Source: Sanchytrium tribonematis (Eukaryota). From it: a stretch of DNA of 42,016 bases. Under the pieces are notes generated by a model. That model worked only from the letters and a program-made list of their open reading frames with translations. It was not told the DNA's origin and did not search any database. Both the position numbers and the translations under genes were made by a program. Where the stretch lies: positions 1-42,016 of the forward strand of contig JADGIG010000022.1 in assembly GCA_018985235.1 (NCBI GenBank), given 5' to 3'. Below, piece by piece: positions 3,232 through 40,197 of the stretch. The stretch's first letter is position 1. Each line of letters opens with the position of its first letter.

Positions 3232-4318
3232 TTACAAGATTCCACTTTCTTTGAGCGCATTTTGCAAGATGGTGTCTTTAACAGCAGCAAAAACTAAATT
3301 AAACAAAAATACCAAGCCTGATATTCGACGTGTCAGTTGCGCAAGTCAAATGTGGATATATTTTAAGTTTAGCTCTATTTACATTAGAAAATTTTCCAAG
3401 GACATACTTCGTTGCTTTGTTAAAGTCGTCTCCGCCAGAATAATCTGGAAAATATTTCTCCAATGGAACTTGCGGTAATTTTGCCTTGAAAAGATCAACT
3501 TTGTTAAGAAACAAAATCATCGAAGATCTAACAAACCATCTCGAATTAATAACAGATTCAAATAATATGATCGATTCATTCATTCTGTTCTGTTTGCTAT
3601 CTTCTAGAAGTGATTGGTCATATTCAGATAAGGAAGTAATGAAAATGACAGATGTAACTCCTTCAAAACAATGAATCCATTTTTTACGTTCACTTCTTTG
3701 ACCACCAACGTCGAACATATGAATAGCCAGCTGTCCCATGTGAAACCTGGTTTCAACGATACCAGTAGTTTTAATACGAGCACGTAAAATATCTTGCTCA
3801 TTTGGTACATAATTGGATTGACAAATTCTCTTTACTTCAGAAAAGAAATAAGGAGCACTGTCAAGTAAATAAAATTCGCTTGATCTTTTCAATGCTTCCT
3901 GGACAACTGGATCAGCCCACAAAGAGGTAATAATATCCGCATGTTCTTGATTCAAGGAAAGTTGGTTGGTATCTTTTTGTCCTTCTGTCAATTCTTGAAA
4001 TCTTTTTGCTAATTTTTTGTTTTTTTCTACTCTCCAATTCAATCCAAGTTTTACCAACGCGTCAGTGAATAATTTGACACTCAATACTATATTGGCATAA
4101 ATTGTAGGTTTAAATGAAAGAGATTCTTGAGTATTATAACCATTCATATGTATGATTTTCATTTGTCGAACAATTGTGGATTTACCAGATTCACCAGCAC
4201 CGAGTAATAAAATTTTACATTCTCTTTTATACTTTTCAGCATCCCGTAAGAGCTGGTCTTCTATTTCTTGATTTCGTTTCTTTTGTCGTCGAATTTCACC
4301 AGAACATGCAGCTCCCAT
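3232..4318 (-). CDS. Heterotrimeric G-protein alpha subunit, fungal group III-like (355 aa, one intron)
   Basis: MGAAC lipidation motif, [21 protein letters not shown]. Splicing 3294-3312 restores the C-terminus RLVFAAVKDTILQNALKESGIL*. Confidence 0.95.
3294..3312 (-). other. 19-nt spliceosomal intron
   Basis: gtatttttgtttaatttag; removal restores the conserved G-alpha C-terminal helix. Confidence 0.95.
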
Positions 4319-4398
4319 ACTTCTCGCGTTTCAAAAAGTTTTAAAGCCTCAAACGGAAGCTAAAATTTTGAGACATTTATTTAAAGTGAGAATTTATT

Positions 4399-5491
4399 TT
4401 ACAATATGAATTTCTTGAAAAGTTCGGTTATTTTGGAGGATCTCGAAGAATTTGGTACAACATAGGGTTGTAAAATTTTAAGTTTGGAAAGGCTACTTAG
4501 GGATGCCCTATTGTCCGGATTTTTATAAAGCATTTCTTTGATTATTATATGATAAGAAGAAGTCTCATCGGGGTAATTAGGCTCTAAGCTCGCCATTATT
4601 TCATACAAATCAGGTAAATTATCCGCATCCCATGGCAAACAGCCATGAAATAAGCAATACAAGGTCACACCTAAGGCAAATATATCTATTTTAGTTCCAT
4701 CGAGCCTTTTCTCTCTCCTTACCTCTGGTGGTGTAAATGCAGGTGTGGTTTCTTTTGGAGAATCAATAATTAGTTGCTTTCCGGAGGGGACACATATAGA
4801 CATTCCGAAATCGGTTAATTTGATATTTCCATTAAAGCATACAAGAATATTATCCGGCTTAATGTCACAGTGAATAATTCGATTGGAATGCAGGAAAGAA
4901 ACAGCGTTTAACATCTGGCCAAAAACCCTTAAACATTCCGTTGTTTGCAATGGCGAGGTTTTCATTTGTGATTCAATATGCATAACTGGGCCCGCACATA
5001 ATTCGAATACTGAGTTAACATGAAGTACTTAAATAAACTGCGTCTGATTTTTGGTCATCTAAAACGTCATATAGTTTCGTTATTCTAGGATGCTCAATTG
5101 CTTTTAAAATTTTGATTTCGTTCTCTAGAGATATACCGTAACTCCAAAAAGCATGGCGTTTTAGTAGTTTTCTAGAGATTACTTTGCACGCATAATGCTT
5201 ATGATCTATTGTGTTCAAAACTTGTAAAACCTTGCTGAACGAGCCTTGTCCTATAGTATTTAAAACGATATACTGATTAATGATGTCATACTGTGCAATT
5301 TTTGATGTCAGTAAAAATTTCTGCTGAGTAGCGGGCGTAGAATGGGTACGTATATGATTTGGATCAGAATATCGTCTGATGCCATTGTAACTGGGAACTC
5401 TTATATGTTCCCTATGCTCACTTGGTCTATGTAAATTAAGATATGAGCTGTTAAGTAAATCTTTTGAATCTTGTACTTCTTTTTGTTCCAT
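4399..5491 (-). CDS. Ser/Thr protein kinase, CaMKK/Ssp1-like (357 aa, one intron)
   Basis: INQYIVLNTIGQGSFSKV, ACK, LYDVLDD...VYL|IFELCAGPVM across the intron, HCDIKPDN, DFG, TPAFTPPE. Confidence 0.85.
5010..5028 (-). other. 19-nt spliceosomal intron
   Basis: gtacttcatgttaactcag; joins the two kinase-lobe ORFs in frame. Confidence 0.95.
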
Positions 5492-5533
5492 TTTAGAAAA
5501 AGCCAATTTTCAAAACACGAATTTATTTTGTTT

Positions 5534-7958
5534 TTAGACATCCTGAATAAATATTTGTCTCACATGCTTCGCTTGAACCTCCAGATCAGATGTGCTTTGA
5601 CATAGGTCTAAAAATTTCAGCATCCAAGCACCCTTTAAATTTGTTGTCAGTAGTGGATTGTCAGCCACATGCGGGATTATGTCATTTATAAGACCCAAAA
5701 GAGATTTATAAAGCTGGACATCTCTCAGATAAACATCCTCTGCGCAATTATTGACAAATGTAACGATAAATGGCACTAGAGACTGGAGTATATTTGCTAA
5801 ATTAGTCGACAATACGCTTTGCTTTCATTGCCCATAGTAATTCTATTAAGCAATCCGCGGTAGCTTGGCGTAGCTCTAGAGTGAAATCAGAGTCACTTGC
5901 ATCTATAACAGTACTTGCTGTTGTTAAGATCGATGCTATGTTTTGTAAATAGGGTTCGAAAGAACTTCCCATAGCTGCAGCAAAATCTCCTAGACAAGTC
6001 AAAATAACAGGTTTGACAGACTTCTCCACTGACTGGCTTGTCAAGAGTTGAAATAGTGGTTCAATGAACTCCGAAAAGAATACGCTGGAACCATTCATTT
6101 TCGCAATGTCGCTCAGAAGAAATATTGCATTTCTTAATAAGGAGGGGCTTGTTTGCTGATTCAGAGACGACGAAATGTGCGATTTTAGTGTATTTAAGTA
6201 GCGCATGAATTTATCACCCATAACAAGAACGATAGTTCCCATAATTCGGAGACAATCTTCAGGAATTTTGGTAAAAGCCCCCATAAGTGTTTGCATTATG
6301 TTGTCAACAAGAGATATTTCTAAATTGTCAATTCTTGCAACAACCCTTTCTACTATACAACCCATGTTTTCCAGATGTTCAATAATCGCATTTGATTGAA
6401 TCGCAATATTAGATGTATTGGTAAAACTGCTCAGAGCCTGAGAGCCAATGTTTTCAATAACACCACGTTCACAGTCAGGAGAATTTAGAATGAAGGATTC
6501 TAAAGTTTCAGTTGCTGCTCTTCGAACGCGTGATGGCTCTTGAGGAGTGGGGACACCAGCCATTATAAGTAGACGACCAGAAAGTTTGCTTATAACCAAA
6601 GAACTTGTGGGCGGTTTGTTTGCAATAAAATTACCCAACCCAATACACGATAGTAATTTTACTGGTTCTTCTAATTCCAATCCTTGCTCGAAAGCCGATA
6701 CAATAGAAGCAAAATGGTCTGGGTGAACATAGTTCAATAACTTGTCACAGATAGATCCCAAAACCCAAACACAACTTTCCCGGACACCCGCGCTTTCACA
6801 ACCAACTAATCCAATCAATATTGGGAGCGCAGAATTCACTAAGTGTCCAATGTATTCTGGATCTGGACCATCCAATATGCAGCCGAATGCTGTAACGGCA
6901 CCCTCTTTTAATATCCAATCATTTTGTACAATGTTTGATTCAATGAAAGGGATAACTTCATTTGCTAGATCATTTTTGAGCAATTGCGCAAATAAAGTCA
7001 AACAATTTACAGCAGATGTATATATACACCATTCATCCTTGTCCACATCCTCACAATTTGTCAAAAGCCATGTTAAAATTGGAACAACATCTTTTAAATG
7101 AGTTTTTGCAAAATTCATCATTTGCTTGTCCTGGTATTGTGTAATATTGATTTCTTCATCGCAAATTGTACTCCAAAATTCAATGGCTTGGAGTGCTACC
7201 TGTTCGTCTTTATGAGTTACTCCGTATTGCATTGCAGCTGTTGTAAGACCCGACAAAGCATTTTTCATGTAAGGCTCCATAAATTCATAGTAAATCGTCA
7301 TGATTTTAACAAGACATTCAAAAGCTACAGTTCTAACTTCAGAGTCTTTGTATATACAACAAGTGCAAACAGTCTCCATAATGTAATTTCTCTCACCTTC
7401 AACCTGGAAGTTATCTTTAACGAAAGCAAGTGAATTATTCAAGGCTGCAATACTTGCTTTTTTCACTTTAATAGAATCGTGATTGGCTCCATAAATTACT
7501 GCAGTTAAAATTGGATTAGCGTATGCTTTTAAATATTCAGAATCGACCTTTTCACATATATAGCCAATGGAGCTTAACGCATTGGCTTTTTTACTGTCTG
7601 AATTGGGTGATTGTATTATTTGCATTAGCCTAGGTACCACCAACCAACTCTCAATTTCAACAGCCGCCATGCTTGATATTGCAATTGGAGCCATTGAAGA
7701 TTCCAACAATTCCAGCAAATTCTCGTGAATGGAATTGCGGATTTCAACATTCGTACCCAATATTTCTGTCGATCTTTTTTCGCAAATATTTTTTAATAAC
7801 AAGCAACAGCCACTTACAATTTGGTCATTTTTCTTAGCTTTAAATTCAATATTTATATAATCCAATCCTGCATTTAAATCTAACAATAGACCCTGAAGCT
7901 CTGCTTCTGCAGCAGCGTTTCCTTGGAGTGACTTGATTAAAACATCAGCAAATGACAT
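5534..7958 (-). CDS. KAP95: Importin beta-1 / karyopherin beta (801 aa, one intron)
   Basis: IGYICE, ILTAVIYG, ALNNSLAFVKDNFQVEGERNYIME, VALQAIEFWSTICDEE, AFGCILDGP, VKPVILTCLGD. Start MSFADVL at 7958. Confidence 0.92.
5797..5815 (-). other. 19-nt spliceosomal intron
   Basis: gtattgtcgactaatttag; joins the importin body to its last HEAT repeats (KAK-PNILQSLVPF). Confidence 0.93.
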
Positions 7959-8134
7959 TGTGTGACAATTTGACTCCAATTAAATTTGTGTTGAAAAGAG
8001 CAGCAATTGTATGGCAGCCATGCGTCGTGTTCTTAACACCTCACTGAATTCGACAGCATCTAGTTCACGGTTATATTTTAACGCAAATTTTAATTTAACT
8101 TAATATCGTTAAGACATTTAATTTATTTACATCA

Positions 8135-9243
8135 TCACATAATCCCAACATCCTTCAACGTATTGCTTACGATTGTATCTTTGACAGCATTAAATACGAC
8201 TCTTATGTTGCTAAATAAATTTAAATTACTTGGTATCCGTAGCACATGTTATGTGAGGGTATATTTTTAATTTTGCACGATTGACATTTGTAAATTTTGA
8301 TAAAATGTATTTCGCTGCTCTAGTGACATCATTTCCACCATTATAATCATCATAAAAATTTTCCAATGGAGATCGATCGAGTTTGTCTTTGAATGCGTCT
8401 GCTTTGTTCAAAAACAGTATAAGAGAGCTTTTTTGAAACCACCTCGAATTGATGACAGAATCAAATAGAGAAATCGATTCTTGCATTCTATTTTGGCTTG
8501 AATCCTCGAGTAGTGCTAAATCATAGTCTACAAGACTTACAAAAAATATCACGGAAGTAACAGCTTCAAAGCAATGGATCCATTTCTTTCTCTCACTTCT
8601 TTGCCCACCCACATCAAACATGCTATATCAGAAAAAGTTACTGTATGCTTAACCCTTGGACATTAAATTTTGTTTCGACTATTCCAGTCGTTTTTATCCT
8701 AACTCGTAAAATATCCTGTTCCGAAGGAACGTAGTTTTCATTGGCAATACGTTCCATTTCTTTAATATAATATGGCGTCGAATCTAACATGTAAAATTCA
8801 TTGGAACGATACATTGCCGTACTCGCAGAAGAATCTTCCCAAAGCTCTTTGATGGTTTCCATATGACTTTGTGTGAATTTCAATTCATCAGACTTTTTCA
8901 TATCCTCAAATTCTTGAAGTAGAGCCTCGCATTTTTGTCGGATTACATCAGAGGACCAGCCAATTTTCAGCTTATTTAAAATCCCATCATTGAGGAGCAT
9001 GATTCCAGTAAATATATTCATATATATTGAAGCCTTGAAGGCCAGGCATTCCTGTTTGGAGTAGCCATTCATATGCATAATTTTCATCTGTCTAACAATT
9101 GTTGATTTTCCAGACTCTCCTGATCCTAGTAGTAGTATCTTGGCTTCTTTCTTGAGATTTTCAGCATCTTTTTTCAAACCCTCTTCTATTTGAGAATTTT
9201 TTTGACGAGCAACATTTAAATCCGAAGAACTACACGCACCCAT
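8135..9243 (-). CDS. Heterotrimeric G-protein alpha subunit (356 aa, two introns)
   Basis: MGAC start, [53 protein letters not shown] after splicing. Confidence 0.95.
8211..8229 (-). other. 19-nt spliceosomal intron
   Basis: gtaatttaaatttatttag; restores the G-alpha C-terminus. Confidence 0.95.
8623..8641 (-). other. 19-nt spliceosomal intron
   Basis: gtaactttttctgatatag; phase 2 in the His codon preceding MFDVGGQ. Confidence 0.95.
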
Positions 9244-9304
9244 TTTAAGATTTGTTTCGAAACGCATAAACATATGGCTTTAATTATTTATTGTCAACAT
9301 TATC

Positions 9305-9748: not shown

Positions 9749-9765
9749 TGACCTAAAAGTAGTTT

Positions 9766-10155
9766 TTACTTTAAAGATTTGATAATCTCATCTGTAAGCT
9801 CATTTAGCCAAGTAAGGAAATATTTGAATCCAAATAGTAGGCAAACAAATACCCCAAAAAGACCCATAAATGTGTAGGGATATAGATACACCATTATGAT
9901 AGAAACCAAAAACAAACCACTAGGAAGAGTCATGATAGCGTAATTACGCTGCCTTCTGGGTTGATATGTATCTATTGTGGTTGTATATCTTCGCTTTCGC
10001 CTACTTTTCATTTCAAACCGTATCTCTTTTTTAGTTTCATTTTTGATTGTATTTACATTTTTAACGTTTACTTGATCCTCTCCTTCAGTTTTCTTTGACA
10101 TTTGGGAAGTACCTTGCTGAATCATTTCCTCTAATTTGTGGTTCAACTCGTCCAT
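9766..10155 (-). CDS. Small hypothetical membrane protein (two C-terminal hydrophobic segments after a basic stretch)
   Basis: 129-aa ATG ORF filling the gap; hydrophobic hairpin at residues ~73-115. Confidence 0.6.
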   Translation of the reverse strand: MDELNHKLEEMIQQGTSQMSKKTEGEDQVNVKNVNTIKNETKKEIRFEMKSRRKRRYTTTIDTYQPRRQRNYAIMTLPSGLFLVSIIMVYLYPYTFMGLFGVFVCLLFGFKYFLTWLNELTDEIIKSLK

Positions 10156-10333: not shown

Positions 10334-10943
10334 ATGCATTTGTTTGGAAGAAAACCACAGCCTAAAGACTCCATTCTTAAACTCAGGCAGACGTTGGACA
10401 TAATAGAAAAGCGGGAGTCGTATCTCCAAAATAAAATCAACAATGAAATGGTAGTAGCAAAACAAAACATTAACAATAAAAGGGTAGCATTAATGGCACT
10501 CAAAAGGAAGAAACAATATGAGCAGCAAATGGACAAATTGATGGGTGCCCGTATGACCATTGAACAGCAAGTTTTAGTGATCGAGAATGCGCAAGTCAAC
10601 TACGAGGCTATGCAGGCTATGAAGCAGGGTGCGCAATCTTTAAGCACTCTGCATAACAATATGAAAGTAGAGCAGGTTGACAAGGTTATGGATGATATAC
10701 GCGATCAAATGGATCTGGCAAATGAAATAAGTGATGCGATCGCACAACCTATGATTCAAATGGATGAAGATGAATTGTTAAAAGAATTGGAAGAATTGGA
10801 AGGCAATCAGCTCAGTGAAGAGCTTACTTCAGTTGGTCAAGTCAATGCACCTGCTGCTCCAAATACTCAATTGAAAAGTATATATAACTTATTTAGCTGA
10901 AGAAGAAGAATTAGAAGAACTAAAACAAGCCATGATGTTGTAA
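10334..10943 (+). CDS. SNF7: ESCRT-III subunit Snf7/Vps32/CHMP4 (196 aa, one intron)
   Basis: NKRVALMALKRKKQYEQQ, VDKVMDDIRDQ, EISDAIAQP, DEDELLKELEELE; splicing gives the terminal helix TEEEELEELKQAMML*. Confidence 0.93.
10878..10896 (+). other. 19-nt spliceosomal intron
   Basis: gtatatataacttatttag; restores the acidic C-terminal Snf7 helix. Confidence 0.9.
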
Positions 10944-16324: not shown

Positions 16325-16686
16325 GTCAAGTTCTTGCAATAGCTGAGGCTTTTATTAAAAATTGGATTAAAATCTGGCCAATAATGTGGCCCAATCAAAC
16401 TTGGTAATTGACTTAGATGATTTGTGGTTCTATATTTACAAGCCTATGCTGAAGTTCAATTTGATTCATATAATGTGAGATGATAAAATATTGTATCACC
16501 TTTTCTATCCTTATAAGCAATTCTATGCTGACTTCCATATCCAATTGACATTTATAGATTTCTGCTTATTGATAGAGACAGAGCATGTTGCATAAATAAA
16601 ATTTTGATGGAGCTCGACTTCATGACAAACCCTTGAGCTATGTACTATTTTATCTATAAATCCATATCATCTCCTTCATTTATACT

Positions 16687-16758
16687 AGCGAGGTGGAACA
16701 GTGGAAGTTCGCCAGGCTCATAACCTGGAAGTCGGTTGATCGAAACAACCCCTCGCTA
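16687..16758 (+). tRNA. Initiator tRNA-Met (CAT)
   Basis: Cloverleaf: acceptor AGCGAGG/CCTCGCT (A1-U72), anticodon arm CCAGG-CTCATAA-CCTGG, T arm GGTTG-ATCGAAA-CAACC (eukaryotic initiator T-loop); 72 nt. Confidence 0.95.
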
Positions 16759-16761
16759 TTA

Positions 16762-19700: not shown

Positions 19701-20336
19701 AAACGAGCAAAAAAAGTGGTTATTCAGAGATTGTCGCATCCGTTGCCAAGGTACAAATTTTTAATTTAGGATATTGTCGAAAAAAATAAAAAAAGAGATC
19801 AACGTAAACAAGATTATTTGAAGTTAACCGAGACTATTGAACATTTAAAATCTAAATTGACTTATTTGGAATCTCAAAGGGACCAATACAAGACATATAT
19901 AGACAGTTGTTTAAATAGCATGCAAAATAAGAACAAGTCGAAAAAACAACCACTGCCTCTTACGAAACAATATTATCATCAGAAAAAAGTTCAGAAAGAA
20001 AGTGGAAGATTGCCACAATTTGGTTCTTACAAGTATACTGCTAGACAGCTGCAAGAAAAAGGTGTCCTTATTTCTATTGATCATCCCGAAGTATCGGTTA
20101 AACAATATGACAAGATCGATATCACTATATCCTCAGATGAAGCTGGTGTCTTTGATGTTTCAGTGTCTTATTCTCCAGTTAAGGGTCTAGTTGTTGTTCA
20201 AGAGAAAGAGCAAGTAAGATTGGACGACCTTTTGCAAAACCAATTCGAGGGCCAAACTGTTGTCGAGCTATTCGATATGGCGAAATGTAATATTAATCTA
20301 TTGATCCATTTGATTAACAAAAAGTTTTATGCATAA
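16799..20336 (+). CDS. IQG1: IQGAP (CH domain, IQ repeats, RasGAP-related domain, RasGAP_C; 1172 aa, one intron)
   Basis: AYEYLCHIGEAKQWIE, LQFRHSDNIN, DLYDKKNIPKVIY, IQ motifs, YGIRY, FFRYINPAVVAPE, FGSYKYTARQLQEKGVL, NINLLIHLINKKFY. Confidence 0.95.
19751..19769 (+). other. 19-nt spliceosomal intron
   Basis: gtacaaatttttaatttag; phase 0, gives VAK|DIVEKNKKRDQR in frame with the downstream ORF. Confidence 0.95.
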
Positions 20337-21576: not shown

Positions 21577-21606
21577 AAACTCTTCAAGGAGAAATTTGAA
21601 AACAAT

Positions 21607-24438
21607 TTATTTTTTACCAAACCTATGTAGAAGTACTCCCTCAATGGTCTGATTTTGATCGTCAGCTTCCTGTAATTCTTTTAAACTTTTTTGATCAAGC
21701 AAAAAATATGTAGTAAAATTTTCCCTTAATTTAACGACTTTAATTATGGCATCTTCATGACAAGCAATTAATTTGACGTCAGCGTTTGCCACATTTTCGA
21801 GTGGATGATTTGGCCAAGTCTTGACGAATTGTTCGAGAATTTCTAAATCAGATTCCAAAGGAATACAATCTTCTTGTCGAAATTGCCGAACAGGGTATGC
21901 ATTTCCAATTATTACGCTTTGGACAAAATCGATGATTGCCTGACAAACAATCACCTCTAAGTGATACTGCTGAGTAGCATCTAAAGGAACTGAAGTTATC
22001 CTTTGTTTGCAAAATGATGCCTTATCAAGAAAAGATTCCATTCTATAGTCATGAATTGTAGGAAAATAAAATGTTTCCCTAAAATTGGGAGCCACAATTT
22101 CTAGCAGTTTATCTGTGAAGTCTTTAGAAAATTCTGTAAAAGCTAGATCTAGTCTAAAGTATAATGATTGATAGACACCATAAAAAACAATTTTTGAATT
22201 ATTTTCAAAACAATTTTTTTTGACTTTCCTACAAACTCGCTTCAAACCTTGAAGTAAAAAACAATAGTTTGAATATTGGATTAAATACTACGTTAGAATG
22301 ATATATACATTTGAAATTGGCTCTTCTATACGCAATTTTGAGCCAGTGACTTTCCTTAATGGATTTTTAAGATAAAGTCTCGCTAAATGGTAGAAACTGG
22401 GACCTAAGCTTAAAATTAAATAACATGCTGTTTTTCTAGTCAACGACTTCACGTCTAATTTGCAAAACATATCTACAATTCTATTGACGAATAGTAAGAA
22501 ATTATACACTCCATCGGTCCTTAAATCTGAGAATAAATCCAGTTGATCTTTTTCATAACATTGCTGACCTATTCCTATCAATTTTGATGTCTCTTCAAAT
22601 ATCCAATTTTCCAAACAACTAAGAAGAAACCAACTTAAATCTACATTTCTGACATCTATTGCGTATTCTTGAAGCGCTCTTCCCATGAAAATGTGGATTT
22701 CATTCACCTTGTCACAGCATTGCTGAAATATTGAGCCAAAAGCTTTAATAGTCACTTTCGGGGTCTTCTCAAATATAGTTGAACACAGATTGTGAACATG
22801 CCTCCTCCAAAATAATTCTGGTCTCACAAATTTCGAAAGTGCTTCAAATCTTACACTCCAATCCTTAATAAATGTAGATTCTATGGCTTCTAGAAATAAC
22901 AATATTGTGTTTTCATCAAAATCTGAATTCGACGGTATTAAGATTTGAGTCAATTTAGCAATATTACGCTCACTTGCTTGTTTCATGATTAATTCCATTA
23001 ATCTGGAAATACTTGCTTTAACCCATTGCTCCTTTAGGCCTGAAATTGCAGAATTTTCGTAGGAAATCATAATTTCATGGCTAAATTCTACTGTTAATAA
23101 CAATTCACAGGTATCCAGATATAGTGTCACTATGTCGACACAAATGTCGCTTGCAAGATGATACTCTGTCACGATTTGTTTAAATAGTATATTTAGGTAA
23201 TACTGAGCAACTAAAGGACTTAACTTTACATTTGAAGCTGATTTATCCTCAAGCAGAAATTTAAATTGAGGCTTGATTAGTTCAAAATCAATGATCTCGG
23301 CGGAATAAAGTGCTAAGAAATTGCCCCATAATATCTGTCTGGGATGTAAGCAAAACAAATCACAAAACCATTTTATAAAAGGCTTATATTCCGAATCTTC
23401 GCATGACCAGCCATCGTTTTTAAATAAAGCAAGTTGTACCTTGCGAATCTCTGCGAACATAATCGATGTTAAAAACCCATGGTTCGTGTCTTGTTGAGAA
23501 AAATTAAACTTGAAAATCAATTGCATCCAGCGCATAAGCGTATCTAATACGCTATCATAATACGAGTTCTCGCCTAAAAATAAGTCTAGTATAGTAAATG
23601 CTTCATTTATGATTTCATCGAATTGAAGCGAGATGATTTTATCATCCATCTTTTTTATAATAATTGTTGATTTTTCTAGTAAAACAAATGCTAAAAGTTT
23701 AAATTGCCTGTCAGACCACTCTTTGTTTGACCGAAAATGTCTCGCTAAGACAAATTTTAGTAAAAATGGATCCTTGTTTAAGACGCAATAAGTCATTAAA
23801 ACACTTGAAAACTCTTCAATATTTTGGGTGCTATTGATATCGAGATTAATTGTTGTCGAGTCCATATTTTGATTTAATGGCACTATAGAATAATATTCTG
23901 CTAATTCAATACTCTTTTTCTTATTAATCCCATAAAACAATCTGATTTTATCACTTATTACATATTTTATATTAAAATTTGGCTTATTAAACAATAAAAG
24001 GCCTAGTAGTAGCTCAAAAGTGCCTAATTGCAGATCCTTAGTCGTTAAATTTGTACCTTTTTTGAAAAATTTATAATATTCAATTTTATCGTAATCAATT
24101 AAAACTTCAAGAACATTGAGGTGGGTAAAATTGGTTTCTTCTACTTCTGTAAATTCTTTGGAGTCACTTTCAGAAAGAGGAGACTGCAATAGTTGTGATT
24201 TTGCCAGTAACAGACTGGGTTTTTGAACAGGCATTGTAAACCATTCAACAGGTATTGCAAATTTTTCACTGCTTTTACAAAAAGAAACCAGCTCTTTGTA
24301 ATTGATCTTATAATCAAACGATTCATAGCCTTTAGGAATAGTTGCAGCACCTGATTCTATGCATTTTTTCAAAAGTAAATTCCCGAGCTCTTCAACTAAA
24401 TCGACATTAGATAGTGCTTTGCTTTCATTTTTTTGCAT
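21607..24438 (-). CDS. Large hypothetical protein, probably alpha-helical (936 aa, one 21-nt intron)
   Basis: Two same-frame ORFs separated only by the TAG that ends a GT-AG intron with a CTAAC branch site. Confidence 0.7.
22288..22308 (-). other. 21-nt spliceosomal intron
   Basis: gtatatatcattctaacgtag; same 5' and 3' geometry as the 19-nt introns; phase 0. Confidence 0.85.
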
Positions 24439-27081: not shown

Positions 27082-28456
27082 ATGAATTTTGAATTAAAGA
27101 AGTTCAATCCTTTTAAAAAGAAAGCAGCCAGTGAGAAATTGACCACTAACAGAAGTATTGAACAAGTAAATTTTAAAGATTCAGAGTCAACCTTAAAATT
27201 ACCAATTGACATCAGCGCCAGTACCTTACTTAAAGAGGATGAAAGCTATCCGATAGGTGGTGTAGCTGAGCGTGAGAAAAGATTTCAGGAGGTGTTGGAT
27301 ATCCTTTCTGGGAAAAAATTAAAAAAAGAGCTTGAAAAATATAAATTACTGAACTTTTTAGGAGATGGTACATATGGTTTTGTGTTGGCTGGGATTTGCA
27401 AAAGACATGGTGAAGTTGCAATTAAGTTTGTATTTAGACACAAAGTTAATACTAAAAACTGGGTTCATGACAAAAATCTTGGCTTTGTATCAAACGAAAT
27501 TCATTTTTTGTCAAAACTGCATCACCCAAATATTATCAAATATATTGAACACTTTGAGACACAGGACTACATAATCATAATTACCGAAATGTTTGGTTGT
27601 GAATGGAAACCTGGTTCAAAACACTTTCAACCAAATGGTATCAATGAAGGAATCAAATTGGTCGACGATAAAAATATTTTTAAGCCGGGTAGCTCTGATG
27701 AACATACACTTACATCTTTAGACTGGAATTCAAAGTCAAAGCTGAAACCCAGAGTCTCTTGTGATTTGTTTGAATGTGTAGATGCACATGAATATTTACC
27801 TGACAGAACCATCAGAAAAATATTTTCCCAATTAGCGTCTGCTATATTGTACCTCCAAATGAATAACATCGTTCATAGAGATTTGAAAGACGAGAACATT
27901 GTGGTGGACGAGTTTTATAGAATAAGATTGATAGATTTTGGTTCTGCTAGCTTCATTCCGGATGATCCAAAACAATATTTTGATAGGTTTTTAGGCACTG
28001 TAGACTTCGCAAGCCCTGAAATCCTGAAAGGATGTCAGTATAGAGGCCCTGAAGCCGAAATGTGGGCTTTAGGTGTTATACTTTATGTTTTGTTTTCCAG
28101 AAACATACCATTTAGAAATTTGAGAGAATCGGAAAGGGCGAATTTTGATGTTCTTCCAAGAATGAATTCTAGTATTCGTTATTTACATAGACGTAGTTCA
28201 TCTTCTGCGACGAATGCTGGAGCCAAATCTGTATAAAAGAGCCACAATATTTGAAATAATTGCCCATCCGTGGCTAAGGGGCGAAGGAAGTTGCTTGACA
28301 GAGGAGGAAATTAAGACTTCACAATCAGAGATAAAGAAAAGCGGACATTGGAACGGATCAATACCTTTAGTTCTTAGGCATGAAAATTCACCCAAACTAT
28401 CCGAAATTTTAAAAACTCACGCTACGAATCACGCAATGGAATCGATTATGGAATAA
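27082..28456 (+). CDS. Ser/Thr protein kinase, PASK/PIM-like catalytic domain without a PAS domain (451 aa, one intron)
   Basis: LGDGTYGFV, VAIKF, DLFECV, HRDLKDENIVVD, LIDFGSA, GTVDFASPEILKGCQYRGPE; splicing restores NVVHLLRRMLEPNLYKRATI. Confidence 0.88.
28172..28190 (+). other. 19-nt spliceosomal intron
   Basis: gtattcgttatttacatag; restores kinase subdomain XI. Confidence 0.93.
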
Positions 28457-28517
28457 ATTAGCATTAATAAATTTAAGACACTCAATTTATTAATATTATA
28501 CCTGAACAGGAGCTAAA

Positions 28518-29888
<1,371 letters not shown>

Positions 29889-29903: not shown

Positions 29904-29933
29904 CCAATCAGCTGTCATGACGTAATTGATTGG
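29904..29933. promoter_or_regulatory. Putative bidirectional promoter core: inverted CCAAT boxes flanking a CRE-like site
   Basis: ccaatca-gctgtca-tgacgta-at-tgattgg between the divergent tubulin and heme-fusion genes. Confidence 0.45.
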
Positions 29934-29987
29934 GCTATATCCGTTAGAATAGTATAATATTATGCTAAAAACGTCTAGGTGTCTCAA

Positions 29988-32537
29988 ATGGCTCGTGAAG
30001 CGATTGAAACGACCGTCTTGTTTATTTTTGAATCTTTAATAGCATCAGAAGAATTTTGTTTTTTCAAAGGGATGCAACAAATATTCTCAAATATTGTTGA
30101 ACGCATTCCAACTGACACCATCGATAAAATTTCTATTGAAAACTGTAAATGTCATGTGTTTTTTTCACATCCTTGGTTGCCTTATGTTCTATTTGATGAG
30201 AATTCCGTTCAATTGCAATTTTATAATTTGCACCTCGACGTTTTGATGCAATTCCAAGAGGCTTTTGAGTGTCTATCATCATTTCGTGCCAAAAATAATC
30301 CATCAATCATCGCCGGGTTTATTGTAGGTTTAGCTGAGTGTTTCCAGATTGAAGATGCAAGTATTGAATCATTAGACAGAATGTTACTCTCTCGAAAAAT
30401 TCATGGCAATATTCAATCATTGTTTAAGCGCACTACCGATCGCGAAGACAATCATTTAGCGACGCTTGATAGGTTAAACGGAGTTTTAAATGAGAATTTT
30501 GTAAATTTACCAAATTTACCTTATATTGTGCAAACTATTTATGGAGTATTGCAGCCAAGACCACCAATTTGGCTTCACAGACAAGCGGGAAGATACTTAC
30601 CGGAATACATGGACCTTAAAGGTACAAAAAATTTCTTAGAATTGACCGCTTCTCCCTCAACTGCATCGACTATAACTCTTCAGCCTATATGGAGGTATGG
30701 AGTAGATGCAGCTATCATTTTCTCAGATATAATGGTAATTCCACAAGCTCTCGGTATGACTTTGGAAATGAGACCCGGTCCCTATTTTCCGCATCCTATC
30801 GCTGTTGAGAAAGACGTTGATGACTTGGTTTATAATCCGATAATTTTAAATCACGTTTATGAAGCACTTAAGCAAACTAAAAAAGGCCTTACCGAATATG
30901 ACACAAAAACTTACGGCACACATCATACTGCCCTAATTGGTTTTTGCGGTGCTCCATGGACAGTTATGTCTTACATGGTTGGACGCGAAAAGTCTGTAGA
31001 TTTTCTGAAACAGAATCCCGAATTATCGCACAAGATGCTAAGAAAACTCTGCGATGTTGCTGTTGATTATCTTTGCAAACAAGTAGAGGCAGGTGCGGAT
31101 TTGGTTCAAGTATTTGATTCGTTCGTAGGAGAGTTACCCGATGATTTGTATATTGAATTTGAAAAGCCATATCTTTGTGAAATAGCGGAAAAATTTTCAA
31201 AAAGATGTCCTACCTCTCCAATTCAGTTATTCCCTCGAGACTTGAAGCCTAGTTTAATTTTAGATCTAGCTAAAAATTCAAAATACTGGACATTTAGTGT
31301 TTCTCAAAATTTTCAGGAAGATTCTATTAAACAATTCCCACTTTCTACTTGCATTCAAGGTAATTTGGATCCTGATCACATGTATTTGGACGAACAGATG
31401 ATTAGAGAAAAAACCTGTAAGATGGTTTCGATGTTCAAAAATTCGCTACAATCCATTAGAGCAAGATATACTGTTAATTTAGGACATGGTACAAAGCCCG
31501 ATATGGATCCAGTGAAAGTCGGTTATTTTATTGACGAGGTCCGATCTCTTTTTCTAGGTACACGTAAATCACCGCTAGCTTTAGCTCAAGCAATGAGCAT
31601 ACAAAGTTGCTTTCTCAAATCTCCATTTACCATCAAGACATTCGAATGTGTCACCAAGGGTGACAAGGTTCTCGATAGATCTCTCAGTGAAATTGGCGAC
31701 AAAGGATTGTTTACACGTGAAATAGAAAGCAAAATTTTAGAAGGTAAAATTGATTTTGCTCAACATTCATTAAAGGACCTTGAGACTAAATTGCAGCCTG
31801 GGCTTTCTATTGGTGCTTATTCCAAAAGATGTAATGAATTTGATTGCATGATATTTTCTTCTGTTCAAAGTTGGAAGAATATGAACGACTTGCCTAATGG
31901 TGCTATTATTGGTACCAGCTCACTACGAAGATCCGCTTTTGTGACTCACAATTGGCCCCACTTGGTTGTTAAAACTATAAGAGGAACTGTTGGAACACGT
32001 CTCAGAAAACTTTTAGTAGATAAGCAGTATGATGCTCTTATACTCGCGCAAAGTGGCTTAGAAAGATTATTTGAGTATGATAAGGATCTTGCAAACTCGC
32101 TGCCAGGATTCCAGAAAGTTGAACTGAGGACATTTTATGCTGCTGGGCAGGGATGTATAGCTCTCGAATTGTCTTCAGCAAATTATTCGCTCTCAAAATG
32201 TCTCAAGACATATGTGGAACTTCCTGAGGATGCTATAAAAGTCCAAAGTGAAAGGAAAGTTTTAGAGGCAATTGAAGGTGGATGCCAAGTACCATTTGGA
32301 GTCCGATTGGATAAATATGATATGAAATGTAATCAGTATTCAGAGGCTAAATTATTACAACGATTTTCTCCCTCTTTTAGAGTACCTGAAAATTTTCAGT
32401 TTTCATCTTATGTCTACGACTCAGAATCGATGACATTTGAACAATTTGAAAATCTAAATTTTCATGATATGCTTCTGGAATTGAAAAAAACCAAAGCCAT
32501 TGAAAAAGTTAAGACTGCAAGGAATAAAAATTGTTGA
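29988..32537 (+). CDS. Fusion protein: unknown ~190-aa N-terminal domain + uroporphyrinogen decarboxylase (HemE/HEM12) + porphobilinogen deaminase (HemC/HEM3)
   Basis: UROD: PIWLHRQAGRYLPEY, DAAIIFSDIMVIP, LIGFCGAPWT, QVFDS, QGNLDP, NLGHG. PBGD: GTRKSPLALAQ, GDKGLFTREIE, HSLKD, GTSSLRR, GQG, EGGCQVP. Confidence 0.93.
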   Translation: MAREAIETTVLFIFESLIASEEFCFFKGMQQIFSNIVERIPTDTIDKISIENCKCHVFFSHPWLPYVLFDENSVQLQFYNLHLDVLMQFQEAFECLSSFRAKNNPSIIAGFIVGLAECFQIEDASIESLDRMLLSRKIHGNIQSLFKRTTDREDNHLATLDRLNGVLNENFVNLPNLPYIVQTIYGVLQPRPPIWLHRQAGRYLPEYMDLKGTKNFLELTASPSTASTITLQPIWRYGVDAAIIFSDIMVIPQALGMTLEMRPGPYFPHPIAVEKDVDDLVYNPIILNHVYEALKQTKKGLTEYDTKTYGTHHTALIGFCGAPWTVMSYMVGREKSVDFLKQNPELSHKMLRKLCDVAVDYLCKQVEAGADLVQVFDSFVGELPDDLYIEFEKPYLCEIAEKFSKRCPTSPIQLFPRDLKPSLILDLAKNSKYWTFSVSQNFQEDSIKQFPLSTCIQGNLDPDHMYLDEQMIREKTCKMVSMFKNSLQSIRARYTVNLGHGTKPDMDPVKVGYFIDEVRSLFLGTRKSPLALAQAMSIQSCFLKSPFTIKTFECVTKGDKVLDRSLSEIGDKGLFTREIESKILEGKIDFAQHSLKDLETKLQPGLSIGAYSKRCNEFDCMIFSSVQSWKNMNDLPNGAIIGTSSLRRSAFVTHNWPHLVVKTIRGTVGTRLRKLLVDKQYDALILAQSGLERLFEYDKDLANSLPGFQKVELRTFYAAGQGCIALELSSANYSLSKCLKTYVELPEDAIKVQSERKVLEAIEGGCQVPFGVRLDKYDMKCNQYSEAKLLQRFSPSFRVPENFQFSSYVYDSESMTFEQFENLNFHDMLLELKKTKAIEKVKTARNKNC

Positions 32538-32559
32538 TTACCCCTTTTGAAATTGCAAA

Positions 32560-34518: not shown

Positions 34519-34528
34519 TAAATGTTTA

Positions 34529-35098: not shown

Positions 35099-35233
35099 TT
35101 GAAAAACTACAAACTAGGAGGTTTACCATGAATCTCAAAAAAGCTTGATAAATTAATATTGTTAGAGCTTAGGAATAGCTTGAAAAAGATGATTTTTCCT
35201 ATATTTATAGGCCTAATTTGTTAGAAATAGTTC

Positions 35234-36848
35234 ATGAATTCAATTAAATCAATTCTTTGGATAATTGGTAATGTTATAGGAACAAATATAGACTATTCTC
35301 TAAAGATTGGAGTGTTAGCGTGGGTGCTCTTTATATACCATTTGATTCAGCATTTTAATTGTGAAAGTAATATGTATGACCAAATAAAAACCGGAAAGAT
35401 TGATTCTGACATTATTGGTCAAAAAACAATTGGAAATTTTAAGATTATAAAAGATACCTTTTTTGCTCACAGATTTGAAATTATATTTGTGTTTGGGAAT
35501 ATTATGGCTCAATTCGATTCAGATTCATGGAGATTTTATGATAGCGCCCTACTATATATAATTGGGTTTGGCAGCTCAAAGTTTAATTTCCATCCAGTAT
35601 TTTTTTCTATATTGTGCTTAAGTCTCGGGATTAGTTTGTACTTTTTGTTTCTGGAGCCGCTAAGTCATGTTTTGTGGCATCTACTACTTACTGGAATTCA
35701 ATCGTCTTCTTTTATTTATTTTTCTAGAAAAGTATCTCTATTTTACTTGTCCGTGATGCTCTTTATAGGCACTTGCTTTTTTGTTCATGCTGTCCGAATT
35801 TTTCCACAGAAAGACAATTTGCTGGAAAGTGATTCTGTAATTGAGGATCTGCTTACAATGGATATTCCTATTTTGACTCTACTACCAGCTGCTTTCGAGT
35901 TACTATTTTTGATTAAAACATGCTTGGATTTGACCCTCCAGGAATTATTTTTAAATTTTATACTAGCTGAAATATTGAAGTTTTTGCAACTTCAAAAATT
36001 CTCAATTTTACTCAGTGTTGTTTGGTTTCTAACAATTGCAATTTACCTGAAATCTTATTCCGACGACCTTGATATCTTGCAGACTTTTAACTTGACTAGT
36101 AAGCAATTATTCTACACATTCATTATATTACTGCTTTCGACTACTATGTTTTGCTTCAATACCATGATCGACGAAGACAGGCTAATCAAATACAGGTACG
36201 GGTTTGTCAATAATTCAGAGGACCATTTTTTGGAGAATCGGAAATGGTAAACATTTTTAATGTAGGTCTATTAAAGCTGATCACAAGAAATATATATTGC
36301 TGGGGAATATGAATCACTTTGTTCATTTTGCCAATGCAAAGAGTATTTATTTCGAGAAATTAGAAAATGCAAGTTGTAAATCAAGCTTGATAATTTTCCC
36401 ACCAGGATTGACAGGCTGCAATTGCGAAAATCTGCTACTTTGCGGTATGACTCAATCTAAATATAATGGTTTTTATACTGTCTTGAGATTTGAACCAGAA
36501 TTATGGAGTTTGGACGATCCCTGTGAGTTACCGCTGTTACTTGATGGCAAAACAGAAAGCTCTTTTCAAAACAGATCTCTCTTAAGAAATGACAAAATAG
36601 TTCAGAAAACTAATATATTGAGGAATTTAGACCACAAATGCTTCGATTCTAACTTACATCGAATTGAAACTTATCGTGCAACAAGTTTAATTGATTGCAG
36701 TGGAATATGTAGACAAACAAAGTCTTGCGTAGCTTATACGTATATTAATTTGGCCTGTGAAGTATTCAACACCATAACCAGAATGAAGTCTTGTAATGGA
36801 ACTTCAAATGTTATTTTGGAGAGGTACAGGTGTGAAAAGCTAACATAA
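35234..36848 (+). CDS. Polytopic membrane protein with C-terminal Cys-rich PAN/Apple-like domain (531 aa, one intron)
   Basis: A hydrophobic 338-aa ORF joined in frame to the next ORF by a 19-nt intron (NRKW-SIKADHKK); C-terminal CSGICRQTKSCVAYTYINLAC. Confidence 0.65.
36247..36265 (+). other. 19-nt spliceosomal intron
   Basis: gtaaacatttttaatgtag; matches the consensus and restores frame. Confidence 0.88.
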
Positions 36849-36929
36849 ATTAGGGCAATTGTTGTAATAAATCCAAATCATTTGCTTATGATAACGACCT
36901 CAAAAAATTTACTTTCACTAGCCACTTTT

Positions 36930-38056
36930 ATGGGAGCCATTTGTTCTTCAACAGAACAGAAAAAGTCCCAAGTTATTGATAAACAACTCGCGATTGATGC
37001 AGAGAAATATAAACAGGAAGTAAAATTATTATTATTAGGCGCGGGAGAATCCGGTAAATCTACTATTGTTCGACAGATGAAAATTATTCATATGAATGGA
37101 TATCCACCTAAAGAAGCTATTTTATTTAAACCCGTTATTTTTAACAATATAATTCTTAATATGTCACTATTTCAAGACGGTTTGGATTCAATGGGATTAA
37201 AATGGAAGAGACGCGAAAATGAAAAAACTGCGAACGACCTTCATCATGAATTTGGAAGACACAAAATCCAACAAGATGACAGAAGACTATCTACACTAAA
37301 TGAGCAAATAGTTTTATCATCCAAACATGCTGTGACTTTAAAAAAATTATGGGAGGATCCAATTGTTAATGAAGCTATGAGTAGGCGAAATGAATTTTAT
37401 TTGCCTGATAGTGCTCAATATTATTTTCAAAATATAGAAAGAATATGTTCATCAGATTATACACCTACTCCAGAAGATATTTTGAGAGTGAGAAAGAAAA
37501 CTACAGGAATTGTCGATACTAGATTTAGAATGGATAAAATTAGAGTTCAGTAATTTATAATAATATAGCATGTTCGATGTTGGCGGCCAAAGAAGCGAGA
37601 GAAGGAAATGGATACATTGTTTTGAGGGCGTCACAATGGTCATTTTTGTTACCTCTTTAAGTGAATACGATCAAACCTTATTGGAAGATGCCAGAGTTAA
37701 TCGCATGGTTGAGTCCATATCTCTTTTTGATAGCGTGGTGAATTCCAGGTGGTTTAGCAGGTCTTCTATGGTTGTTTTATTGAACAAAATTGATATATTT
37801 AAGGAAAAATTACTCATTAGTCCTTTAAGGCGATTTTATCCTGATTTTGACGGGGATCAAGATCCTAGCTTAGCTTGCAAATTTATATTATCAAAATTTA
37901 CAGCCGTGAATAGAGCCAAACTCAAAATATACCCGCACGTCACTTGCGCCACTGATACTAAAAATATAAAACTTGGTACCAAATATTAACGTAGTTTTCG
38001 CTGCTATTAAAGACACTATTTTGCAAAACTCTCTGAAAGTGTCAGGAATATATTAG
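36930..38056 (+). CDS. Heterotrimeric G-protein alpha subunit, group III-like (362 aa, two introns)
   Basis: [52 protein letters not shown]. Confidence 0.95.
37550..37568 (+). other. 19-nt spliceosomal intron
   Basis: gtaatttataataatatag; same position as the 8623-8641 intron in the paralog. Confidence 0.95.
37976..37994 (+). other. 19-nt spliceosomal intron
   Basis: gtaccaaatattaacgtag; same position as the 3294-3312 intron in the paralog. Confidence 0.95.
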
Positions 38057-38135
38057 CCTAAATAAAAACTGATTTAATAAATTCGAGTTTATAAATCGGA
38101 TAAAGAAAATAAAAGTCTCCTTTGTTTTATTTAAA

Positions 38136-38505
38136 ATGGCTCACTCGGATACACATTCTAATGACTCTGTTTCTAAAGATTTGGGAGCTGTACCTGTAGC
38201 AGAGAAAGAAAGCAACGTTGCAATGCCTGTTCCCGAAGAAGAGCCGGTTTCTGAGCCTGTAGAACTTGCAACTGTGGGATTTGATGCTAGGTATTATATA
38301 TTGACATAGATTCCCAAATGTAAATCAAACCAGAAATTGCTGGCAAAATTATGTTGATTACTTTAAATGTGTAAAGCACTTTGGATCGGAAGAAGGTGTT
38401 TGCAAGGTCTTAAAAAGAGCATACGCTGATCTGTGTCCAACAGAGTGGACCGAAAAATGGGATGAACAAAGAGAATCCAACACTTTTCCAGTTAAAGATT
38501 TGTAA
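38136..38505 (+). CDS. COX12: Cytochrome c oxidase subunit 6B (116 aa, one intron)
   Basis: Not in the ORF track. Spliced translation: ...TVGFDAR|FPNVNQTRNCWQNYVDYFKCVKHFG...C...LCPTEWTEKWDEQRESNTFP. Confidence 0.95.
38291..38309 (+). other. 19-nt spliceosomal intron
   Basis: gtattatatattgacatag; restores the conserved FDARFPN. Confidence 0.95.
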
Positions 38506-39489
38506 TTAATAAATCTTTGGCAAATTAAGTCTTGGTGATATTGGTATTGTTCCATCTGCTTTATATTTATAGGCGTTTTTTTCCAGTTTATCTAAATCAT
38601 AAAAATAATTGACCATCGCACCCAGAGAATTTAGCATACCACTATTAGACTGATTAGCCCTGGGCCAAATCTCGAATAAGATTGCTCCATTTTGGAGATG
38701 AAAATTTGCTACGGGACATTTACAATACTTTCCTCTTTTTTCAGTTAGTAAATAATTTTTGGCTTGCGCCTTAGTCATCATTGGACTTTGTAAACACGAT
38801 TCAATTAAATTCTTCTGCCGAAGCCAAACTGAAAATTTGGGTATTGGACTGAGAGTGTAAAATTTTTCTGTTTTAAATTTTTTCTTAAGAAAAATTACAG
38901 CTTGGGAAATAAGAAGTTTACCAAGTCCGATACCGGTTAGATAATGATGAGGAGATATAATTGAGTAAAAATTTGCAACCGATGTTTCTAAGCTTTTTGA
39001 AATTAGAAGCTCGGACACATTCTGAGCCATTTTGTCGCTGAGTCCAATTTTCAAGTAAGCTAGCACTGTGTTTTCCATAAGCGGATGGAATGCAGCAAAT
39101 ATTAGCTTATTTCCACTGAATCTGTTTTCCAAAAGATCATGAACGCTAATGACTGGATGATTACTTTCATGCTGCACTATTTGATCCAATATTTTGCTTG
39201 AACTAGAAGAGTTCAAGATTTTAAAATTTAATTTGGGTATAAATTGCCTCTTGAGCACTTCATTAAATTGATTTTTGAGCTTACTTTCGCTCGAAATTAA
39301 TGAAGCTTCGTAACATTTAAAAAAGTTGTAGATTAGAAAATCATCCATCTGCAAATATACTTCTTCGAGGTCATTTAGATCTGTACTTTTGAGAAGGTCG
39401 CTTATCTGTGCAAAGCTCAAGCTGTCTGCATTCTGAATAATTGATTTGGGCGAGGTATATCTGATATATCGTTGAAATATTTTGAACAT
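38506..39489 (-). CDS. MLYCD: Malonyl-CoA decarboxylase (catalytic domain, short N-terminus)
   Basis: FYSI, GIGLGKLLI, TLSPIPKF, PVANFHLQNGA, SLGAMVNY; start MFKIFQRY resembles a mitochondrial presequence. Confidence 0.88.
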   Translation of the reverse strand: MFKIFQRYIRYTSPKSIIQNADSLSFAQISDLLKSTDLNDLEEVYLQMDDFLIYNFFKCYEASLISSESKLKNQFNEVLKRQFIPKLNFKILNSSSSSKILDQIVQHESNHPVISVHDLLENRFSGNKLIFAAFHPLMENTVLAYLKIGLSDKMAQNVSELLISKSLETSVANFYSIISPHHYLTGIGLGKLLISQAVIFLKKKFKTEKFYTLSPIPKFSVWLRQKNLIESCLQSPMMTKAQAKNYLLTEKRGKYCKCPVANFHLQNGAILFEIWPRANQSNSGMLNSLGAMVNYFYDLDKLEKNAYKYKADGTIPISPRLNLPKIY

Positions 39490-39536
39490 ATGGATATGTA
39501 AATGTTTCAAAACTTTTAAGGTCAAGACAACATTTA

Positions 39537-40197
39537 TTACAAGTCGTCATCATCTTCAGGTAGAGGCTGTGCTGCAGCTTGCTCAAGTTCTCGGTTGTAT
39601 TGCTGCATCAAAGCAGAGTCCACCTGAACCTCAGGAGGCTGTAAAGCAGGAGCAGCAACAAAGTCCAATTGATTATTTCCAACCAATTTTCTAGCCAAAT
39701 ATAAGAACGGCTTTTCAAAGTTATAGTTAGATTTGGCACTGATGTCATAATATTGCAAATTCTTTTTTCTATGGAAAGTGATACTTTTTGCTTTTACTTT
39801 CCTGTCCTTTAGGTCGACTTTGTTACCGCAGAGAACGATTGGAATATTCTCGCAAACTCGAACCAAATCACGATGCCAAGTAGGAACGTTTTTATAAGTA
39901 ATTCTTGAGGTGACGTCAAACATAATTACACCGCATTGCCCACCAATGTAATAACCATCTCTAAGACCACCAAACTTTTCTTGACCAGCAGTGTCCCAAC
40001 AGTCAAAAACCAATTCGCCAAAGTTAGTATGAAATGACAAACTACGAACTTCTACTCCAACCGTTGCAATATATTTCTTTTCAAATTCTCCAGTAACATG
40101 ACGTTTGACAAAGGTAGTCTTTCCAGTGCCTCCGTCGCCAACTAGAACCAATTTAAAGTGACTAAGTTAATAATAAGTACGGTGTTTGTGCAGCCAT
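39537..40197 (-). CDS. GSP1: Ran GTPase (213 aa, one intron)
   Basis: [40 protein letters not shown]-terminal EDDDDL. Confidence 0.98.
40162..40180 (-). other. 19-nt spliceosomal intron
   Basis: gtacttattattaacttag; links ATG at 40197 to FKLVLVG. Confidence 0.93.

Follow-up and report, generated by a model that had tools for sequence, protein, structure and literature searches.

Apparent 19- to 21-nucleotide introns with a probable branch site fused to the acceptor in a gene-dense stretch of DNA from a likely sanchytrid fungus

The ciliate Stentor coeruleus has introns of 15 to 16 nucleotides (nt) with a 5-nt tail and canonical U1 and U2 motifs (PMC9505925). Nucleomorph introns of the chlorarachniophyte Bigelowiella natans measure 18 to 21 nt and have no discernible branch A (PMC6009652), and Mikrocytos combines 16- to 17-nt introns of highly conserved sequence with a spliceosome of 17 to 19 proteins (PMC10245619). 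Introns of Encephalitozoon cuniculi span 22 to 76 nt (PMC3629993), the shortest of seven introns in Vairimorpha has 24 nt, and the shortest animal introns, those of myxobolids, have a median of 22 nt. In the yeast Yarrowia lipolytica, 2 nt lie between TACTAAC and AG, with no pyrimidine tract on the 3′ side (Irimia and Roy 2008, PMC2483917), a spacing that by our own count puts the branch A at −6. Trichomonas and Giardia likewise combine a fixed distance from branch to AG with the lack of such a tract, which is missing in most fungi too (PMC2483917, PMC6679479). Here, we describe 15 inserts of 19 to 21 nt in a 42,016-nt stretch of DNA (contig JADGIG010000022.1, hereafter the window). It is quite probable, in our judgment of the sequence, that these are ordinary U2-type spliceosomal introns that have shrunk to this size and are found from the 3′ end through pairing with U2, the donor being chosen by distance.

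The 15 inserts matched the pattern GTA...TNAYNYAG, 14 of them at exactly 19 nt and one at 21 nt, and all have GT...AG ends and interrupt a reading frame, as in the major class of introns (Table 1). The original prediction for this DNA had listed 14 introns by their last nine bases; each of these 9-mers is the acceptor of a GTA-starting insert in the span it gave (13 of 19 nt and one of 21 nt), and a 15th match of 19 nt, at the end of a beta-tubulin gene (28531-28513), had been missed. A at +3, T at −8, A at −6, and pyrimidines at −5 and −3 were invariant in all 15 introns. Beyond GTA, the donor varied: +4 was T in six introns, A in five, and C in four; +5 was T in nine, A in four, and C in two; and +6 was T in nine, A in three, C in two, and G in one. 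Agreement with the donor consensus AG/GTAAGT was seen in 5/15 introns at +4, 0/15 at +5, 9/15 at +6, and 5/15 for G at the last exon position. The extended donor complementary to U1 and U6 (+4 to +6, chiefly the +5 G), typical of the U2-type class though not strictly required by it, is thus missing. To call +4 to +6 unconserved, as had been done, describes the variation correctly but hides the total absence of G at +5. The branch site is degenerate as well, with C at −9 in 5 of 15 introns and at −5 in 6 of 15. Only 2 to 3 bases follow it on the 3′ side, where the predicted lack of a polypyrimidine tract holds; on the 5′ side, 4/15 introns carry an A-free poly-T hexamer, and the intron interior is 50% T, with 15% G+C (G 5%, C 10%). 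U12-type introns are marked by an RTATCCTT donor and a TCCTTAAC branch motif, neither of which was seen in the position counts of the 15 introns. Motif matches numbered 14 at 19 nt, compared to a mean of 0.85 at the 46 other lengths from 14 to 60 nt (largest, 4) and to 1.35 (largest, 6) in 300 local triplet shuffles, a count that is circular in that the motif was derived from the same sites.

Tests that made no use of the branch motif also recovered the inserts. Pairs of GTA and YAG were most frequent at 19 nt (35, versus a mean of 21.4 and a largest other value of 29). When all GT...AG cuts of 12 to 60 nt linking two open frames of at least 60 codons were scanned, nine cuts fell at 19 nt (eight distinct breaks), with five or fewer at any other length. 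We also scored every GT/GC...AG cut within 45 to 60 nt of a break against homologous proteins; for the importin-beta-like gene, a search of representative sequences gave no close relative but did yield homologues for a junction profile. The 19-nt GTA cut ranked first at 6/6 junctions (five in G-alpha genes and one in the importin gene), each with 9 to 36 candidates. After this cut, the G-alpha junctions aligned to their homologues without gaps, and all six introns carry GTA, T at −8, A at −6, and a pyrimidine at −5. Five further introns (in the kinases, IQGAP, COX6B, and Ran) are supported by domain continuity or by a missing start, and the Snf7 intron is supported by a break in its orthologue; two are called from the frame and one from the motif. 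These results soundly support the inserts as a real feature at the DNA and protein levels. That they are spliced, and at which nucleotide they branch, we infer from the DNA rather than observe in RNA.

To judge by its proteins, the window probably comes from a sanchytrid fungus near Amoeboradix gromovi. SNAP shares 84% identity with an A. gromovi protein and, two close relatives aside, no more than 39% with the remaining matches; for G-alpha 1, identity to A. gromovi is 97%, with Blastocladiomycota next at 63 to 67%; and the A. gromovi contig NODE_18 holds orthologues of G-alpha 1, Snf7, and G-alpha 2. Sanchytrids (Sanchytriomycota) are parasites of algae and the sister group of Blastocladiomycota (PMC8371127, PMC10459994), and their published proteins were predicted as plain open reading frames (ORFs) on genomic contigs (PMC8371127). 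Since these proteins are unspliced, their last residues are translated intron, which we read with the GT donor assumed at the orthologous position. Fourteen records of relatives were fetched for the intron sites; P0255, which has no intron and matches the spliced product of the window gene, and the fragment P0256 were set aside, and 12 were analyzed. When clusters were looked up for 10 window ORFs, Snf7 was the only one for which a usable relative emerged. The 12 ORFs stop or shift at the intron sites: five give an exact length, two fit 20 nt, three fit 19 nt, one is uninformative, and one has no fit. Exact lengths, obtained by reading into the shifted next exon, were 19 nt in P0248 and P0250 and 20 nt in P0131, P0138, and P0254. 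The codons of the three 20-mers allow only A at −6 and only a pyrimidine at −5 (3/3 readable); those of the two 19-mers require T at −5 and leave −6 unconstrained. From A. gromovi, two tails (Leu-Ile-stop and Leu-Met-stop) correspond to T at −8, A at −6, T at −5, and a terminal TAG at 20 nt, with 25 nt as an alternative, and the tails of three relatives stop after four residues, as expected of a 19-mer with TRA at −8 to −6. Among 11 informative tails, A is forced at +3 in 10; at +5, G is excluded in eight and open in three, and T is forced in three. The clade therefore appears to use introns of about 19 to 20 nt, with a constant 3′ anchor and any additional bases placed 5′ of the branch site, an arrangement that had been proposed from the 21-nt intron and recurs in the 20-nt orthologous introns. 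GTA with a single length does not extend as a rule to the whole group: GTA stands in 15/15 introns of the window, but one relative has GTG, and lengths run from 19 to 20 nt (21 nt).

A metagenome scan for a G-alpha gene with a fixed 19-nt intron gave no matches. A scan with variable intron length gave two loci, both representing the same long-intron gene of an unrelated eukaryote, with no peak at 19 nt; we treat them as chance matches and used them solely for intron position. The G-alpha intron shared in site and phase with the 662-nt intron of locus L001 (Table 1) suggests that old introns have shrunk, rather than that new ones were inserted.

We scored pairing of the branch site against the canonical U2 GUAGUA quoted in PMC9505925, which stands in for the U2 sequence of the host. 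With A at −6 bulged, bases −11 to −5 formed 76/90 pairs, compared to 26 to 58 of 90 in six other registers, and the four positions outside the motif definition were paired in 46/60 cases versus 28.4 in within-intron shuffles (P ~1e-4). Pairing around a bulged A, as expected of U2-type introns, is thus available with the canonical motif. In the mechanism that we propose, U2 small nuclear RNA (snRNA) would pair with −11 to −5, leaving the A at −6 unpaired as a bulge; this A, the probable branch nucleotide of a degenerate YTRAY fused to YAG, would yield a 14-nt lariat loop and a 5-nt tail in a 19-mer, in line with the original prediction. AG would be fixed by its position 5 nt past the branch, and U2 with its branch-binding proteins would recognize branch and AG as one unit. 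The donor, GT(A) without a +5 G, would be picked mainly by distance, 13 to 15 nt upstream of the branch A across an AU-rich stretch, so that any ruler would span the interval from donor to branch point, and U2 pairing would be of the normal kind. In a 19-mer, the branch helix would occupy positions 9 to 15 and leave about 2 nt after the donor helix (+1 to +6); this narrow separation is perhaps the reason that donor pairing at +4 to +6 has lapsed. The introns have the fixed branch-to-AG distance of anchored branch points (A at −6 in 15/15) without a 3′ pyrimidine tract, but lack the strong branch consensus (ACTAAC/CTRAC) and strong donor that go with that type, having GTA only. Within these 42 kb, they also have the size of an ultra-short, fixed-length set (below about 25 nt, with a range of 1 to 4 nt), and longer introns elsewhere in the genome are possible.

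Sense coding sequence contains 18 full matches to the motif at 14 to 60 nt and none at 17 to 22 nt; one, of 25 nt with a perfect GTAAGT donor, lies within a conserved G-alpha exon. Because decoys of other lengths exist, the motif alone cannot define the introns, and length is probably informative for recognition. The proposal that distance replaces long pairing with U1 and U2 is therefore upheld in part: length probably matters and the donor is weak, but pairing with U2 appears normal. A retained intron may also be exposed by its own branch site, given that the TRA of a phase-1 19-mer is an in-frame stop that would mark the transcript for decay. Phase 1 accounts for seven of the 15 introns, phase 2 for six, and phase 0 for two. 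Phase 0 is usually in excess among introns, and the window differs in this respect.

For spliceosome genes, we used the A. gromovi eggNOG table in a supplement of PMC8371127. PRP8, SF3B1, BBP, U2AF1, U2AF2 (K12837), U1-70K, LUC7L3, PRP16/22, PRP17, ISY1, and DBR1 are annotated; the predicted loss of U2AF2 is thus not seen in the annotation of this relative. SLU7, PRP18, and U1C were not found in this table by KEGG or KOG number, nor SLU7 and PRP18 by name. The query numbers that matched were confirmed by the descriptions in their rows. Slu7 is reportedly dispensable where the branch site lies no more than 9 nt from the 3′ splice site (PMC10158995). An absence of SLU7 would fit a 5-nt tail, and annotation gaps would explain it equally well. 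No snRNA gene was found in the window by an Rfam search, in which tRNA-Met was the sole match. A bolder version of our interpretation, in which no other fungus or animal has introns as short as those of sanchytrids, and these fungi have lost Slu7, Prp18, and U1C, make no donor pairing beyond +3, and evolved a branch-first ruler of 13 to 15 nt inside Fungi, is tentative and in our view doubtful.

Several observations count against U2-type introns measured by length. The lack of decoys at 17 to 22 nt is not significant alone (18 decoys spread over 47 lengths would place about 2.3 there), and the introns are far more AU-rich than the DNA around them (15% versus ~35% G+C), such that composition may do part of the work ascribed to length. 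Three of the 15 introns (22308, 36247, and 28531) are called from frame or motif and nothing else. The tail of P0249 is incompatible with 19 and 20 nt alike (22 nt with the motif, 17 nt without it), and P0273 carries G at +3. The introns of the relatives fall at four sites and are orthologous, so their origins are not independent. Absences from the eggNOG table are weak evidence, with about half of the proteins annotated and the proteins themselves being unspliced fragments.

Of the other explanations, the one that survives best, which we nonetheless consider unlikely, holds that low G+C and the branch-AG motif drive recognition, that nonsense-mediated decay clears mis-spliced decoys, and that length is a by-product. 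It draws on the interior composition (G 5%, C 10%, against ~35% G+C overall) and on same-site lengths that differ by 1 nt among relatives, one perhaps reaching 22 nt; against it, length is identical in 14/15 introns, and AU-rich decoys of 14 nt sit in coding sequence, though these may simply be too short. Less likely still is that the same introns are read by U1 and/or U6 with altered pairing to an AU-rich donor (e.g., U at +5), with the uniform length marking a floor reached under deletion pressure. The T at +5 in 9/15 introns (never G), the T forced there in three relatives, and the co-evolved U1 of Entamoeba (10.1101/2022.06.08.495308) would agree with such a change; however, +4 to +6 vary over three to four bases at close to interior composition, presenting no new consensus to an snRNA, and Stentor, with even tinier introns, has retained both a canonical U1 end and the U2 GUAGUA (PMC9505925). 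It is very improbable that assembly errors, frameshifts in pseudogenes, or nonspliceosomal events (recoding or endonuclease-type removal) account for the breaks: splicing is deduced from sequence and the public proteins of the affected genes are recorded unspliced, but the inserts are single, of one length, and GT-AG ended, and they interrupt essential genes, the ORFs of relatives are broken at the same codons by inserts that have diverged in sequence while retaining A at −6, site and phase equal those of the long intron in L001, and DNA contigs of run X1, possibly the source and so not independent, are identical across 10/15 inserts in the listed pieces. These contigs held no joint across any intron and no paralogue intron.

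Taken as U2-type introns, the inserts can be set beside the known systems. Like those of Stentor, they are tiny, of near-fixed length, GU-AG ended, and AU-rich, with a probable branch A five bases before the end and extra bases in the loop; unlike in this ciliate, for which no strong branch consensus is reported, they measure 19 to 21 nt, fit YTRAY clearly, and would form a 14-nt loop. Stentor had been invoked as the precedent for A at −6, and its 5-nt tail agrees (PMC9505925), but it is neither the only nor the nearest one: Y. lipolytica (PMC2483917) is likewise a fungus with an anchored branch A at −6 and no 3′ pyrimidine tract. The Yarrowia introns have a median of 204 nt, a strong ACTAAC, and a GTGAGT donor, whereas those of the window are tiny, with a degenerate branch site and GTA only. 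The Bigelowiella nucleomorph shares the length range, the AU richness, a donor with little beyond GU-AG, and length as a proposed cue, but it is the remnant nucleus of an endosymbiont, its intron density is far higher, and its branch A is unseen. Mikrocytos is also a parasite with uniform ultra-short introns; in contrast to this Rhizarian, A. gromovi keeps many more annotated splicing factors. E. cuniculi, a fungal relative, has very short GT-AG introns with a branch motif, but these are longer, variable, few, and strict in donor and branch motifs, and they belong to an independent lineage. Weak donors also occur in known tiny-intron lineages. The design of the introns is thus of a known kind, and the lineage is apparently new, at the short extreme for fungi. 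The literature matches listed contained no report of 19- to 20-nt introns in sanchytrids, with subscription papers uncovered and an earlier mention possible; in the accessible texts of the sanchytrid genome paper and the TPPP paper, "intron" appears only in a reference.

Table 1. Introns called in the window, with the evidence for each
Feature	Gene	Position (strand)	Phase	Evidence and remarks
19-nt intron	G-alpha paralogue 1	3294..3312 (-)	1	Best of 20 GT/GC-AG candidates versus homologues; junction gapless to Blastocladiella G-alpha; break at same site in relatives
19-nt intron	Protein kinase	5010..5028 (-)	1	Pkinase profile 1-72 before, 75-258 after; one of 3 motif-blind candidates
19-nt intron	Importin-beta-like gene	5797..5815 (-)	1	Best of 36 versus 50-homologue profile; Pfam 59-321, then 320-383
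19-nt intron	G-alpha paralogue 2, second intron	8211..8229 (-)	2	Best of 14; 20 nt in three relatives; spliced product matched by intronless orthologue P0255
19-nt intron	G-alpha paralogue 2, first intron	8623..8641 (-)	2	Best of 28; Pfam 2-185, then 185-320; site and phase common to 662-nt intron of locus L001
19-nt intron	Snf7 gene	10878..10896 (+)	1	Frame-based; last exon 15 codons; A. gromovi orthologue breaks there too, its tail fitting 20 nt; alignment leaves junction unfixed
19-nt intron	IQGAP-like gene	19751..19769 (+)	0	Links 985 and 188 codons; RasGAP_C in exon 2; 5 motif-blind candidates at break
21-nt intron, in-frame stop	Gene without Pfam match	22288..22308 (-)	0	Frame-based; sole motif-blind candidate; links 714 and 226 codons
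19-nt intron	Protein kinase	28172..28190 (+)	1	Pkinase 84-212 before, weak 236-263 after (E 0.068); 6 motif-blind candidates compete, one also 19 nt and 6 nt downstream, so exact cut rests on motif
Probable 19-nt intron	Beta-tubulin end	28513..28531 (-)	1	Motif and length only; tail 4-5 codons whether spliced or unspliced
19-nt intron	Membrane-protein-like gene, weak PAN match	36247..36265 (+)	2	Sole motif-blind candidate; links 338 and 194 codons; alternative, two separate genes
19-nt intron	G-alpha paralogue 3, first intron	37550..37568 (+)	2	Best of 18; Pfam 1-185, then 185-323
19-nt intron	G-alpha paralogue 3, second intron	37976..37994 (+)	1	Best of 9; 19 nt in relative P0250; P0128, P0129, and P0251 compatible with 19
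19-nt intron	COX6B/COX12	38291..38309 (+)	2	Sole motif-blind candidate; exon 2 without own Met, matching COX6B from profile position 2
19-nt intron	Ran GTPase	40162..40180 (-)	2	Follows five codons; exon 2 aligns from residue 11-13 of solved Ran chains; first Met of exon 2 about 80 codons in; MAAQT supplied by splicing

Some further candidates were not accepted as introns. A 17-nt GT-AG stretch at 9753-9769 (−) has A at −8 and would fuse a membrane ORF to a DUF1681 ORF; we treated it as intergenic, given that the DUF1681 ORF has its own Met near the profile start and that gaps of 10 to 30 nt are common here. If spliced, it would be an exception to the length and branch rule. The candidate at 36824/36830-36853 would fuse the PAN-like ORF to G-alpha and was rejected, as were the motif-blind candidates at 29922-29978 and 21580-21636 and those inside uninterrupted long ORFs.

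The window is eukaryotic and gene-dense, with about 35% G+C, 28 modeled genes, 93% coding sequence, and most intergenic gaps below 200 nt; introns split 13 of the 28 genes, at about 0.38 introns per kb of coding sequence. Pfam names include three G-alpha paralogues, two kinases, importin-beta, Snf7, SNAP, IQGAP, myosin-chitin synthase, beta-tubulin, Rab, Ran, and COX6B. The three G-alpha paralogues in 42 kb (3232-4318 [−], 8135-9243 [−], and 36930-38056 [+]) differ in their intron sets. Their last intron is in phase 1 in paralogues 1 and 3 and in phase 2, a few codons earlier, in paralogue 2, and the relative P0255 has lost it. A myosin-motor chitin synthase of 1788 amino acids (aa) at 10958-16324 (−) is intronless, and a second, divergent myosin-head ORF at 40773-42016 (+) continues past the window end. 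An 849-aa ORF at 29988-32537 (+) fuses two heme-pathway enzymes, with uroporphyrinogen decarboxylase and porphobilinogen deaminase domains preceded by about 180 residues without domain assignment. If first Met codons are used, a phenylalanyl-tRNA synthetase gene (713-2011 [−]) and a low-complexity ORF (1839-3161 [+]) overlap head to head by 173 nt. At 38505-38506, the stop of COX6B (+) abuts that of a malonyl-CoA decarboxylase-like gene (−) with zero gap; given this and several further gaps of 10 to 30 nt, transcripts must overlap. A tRNA-Met(CAT) gene (16686-16759 [+]) lies inside the largest intergenic gap.

The intron density and the share of split genes imply that the sanchytrid proteomes now public consist in part of fragments. 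Each of the 10 window ORFs looked up in unspliced form has an exactly identical entry in the public collection, and window ORFs with translated intron tails have been deposited as complete proteins in EukProt-sourced records. Fragmented proteomes can bias claims of gene loss, and a simple 19- to 21-nt rule would repair the proteins. At 19 nt, the introns are smaller than any fungal introns in the accounts compared here; they lie 3 nt under the 22-nt floor of E. cuniculi, and the shortest animal introns, with their median of 22 nt, are longer as well. A fungal phylum would thereby join the few lineages whose introns approach the smallest size at which splicing is physically possible. Because the branch site is readable, unlike in the nucleomorph, and the A. 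gromovi spliceosome appears fairly complete, how a large machine would fold a 14-nt loop becomes testable in an opisthokont.

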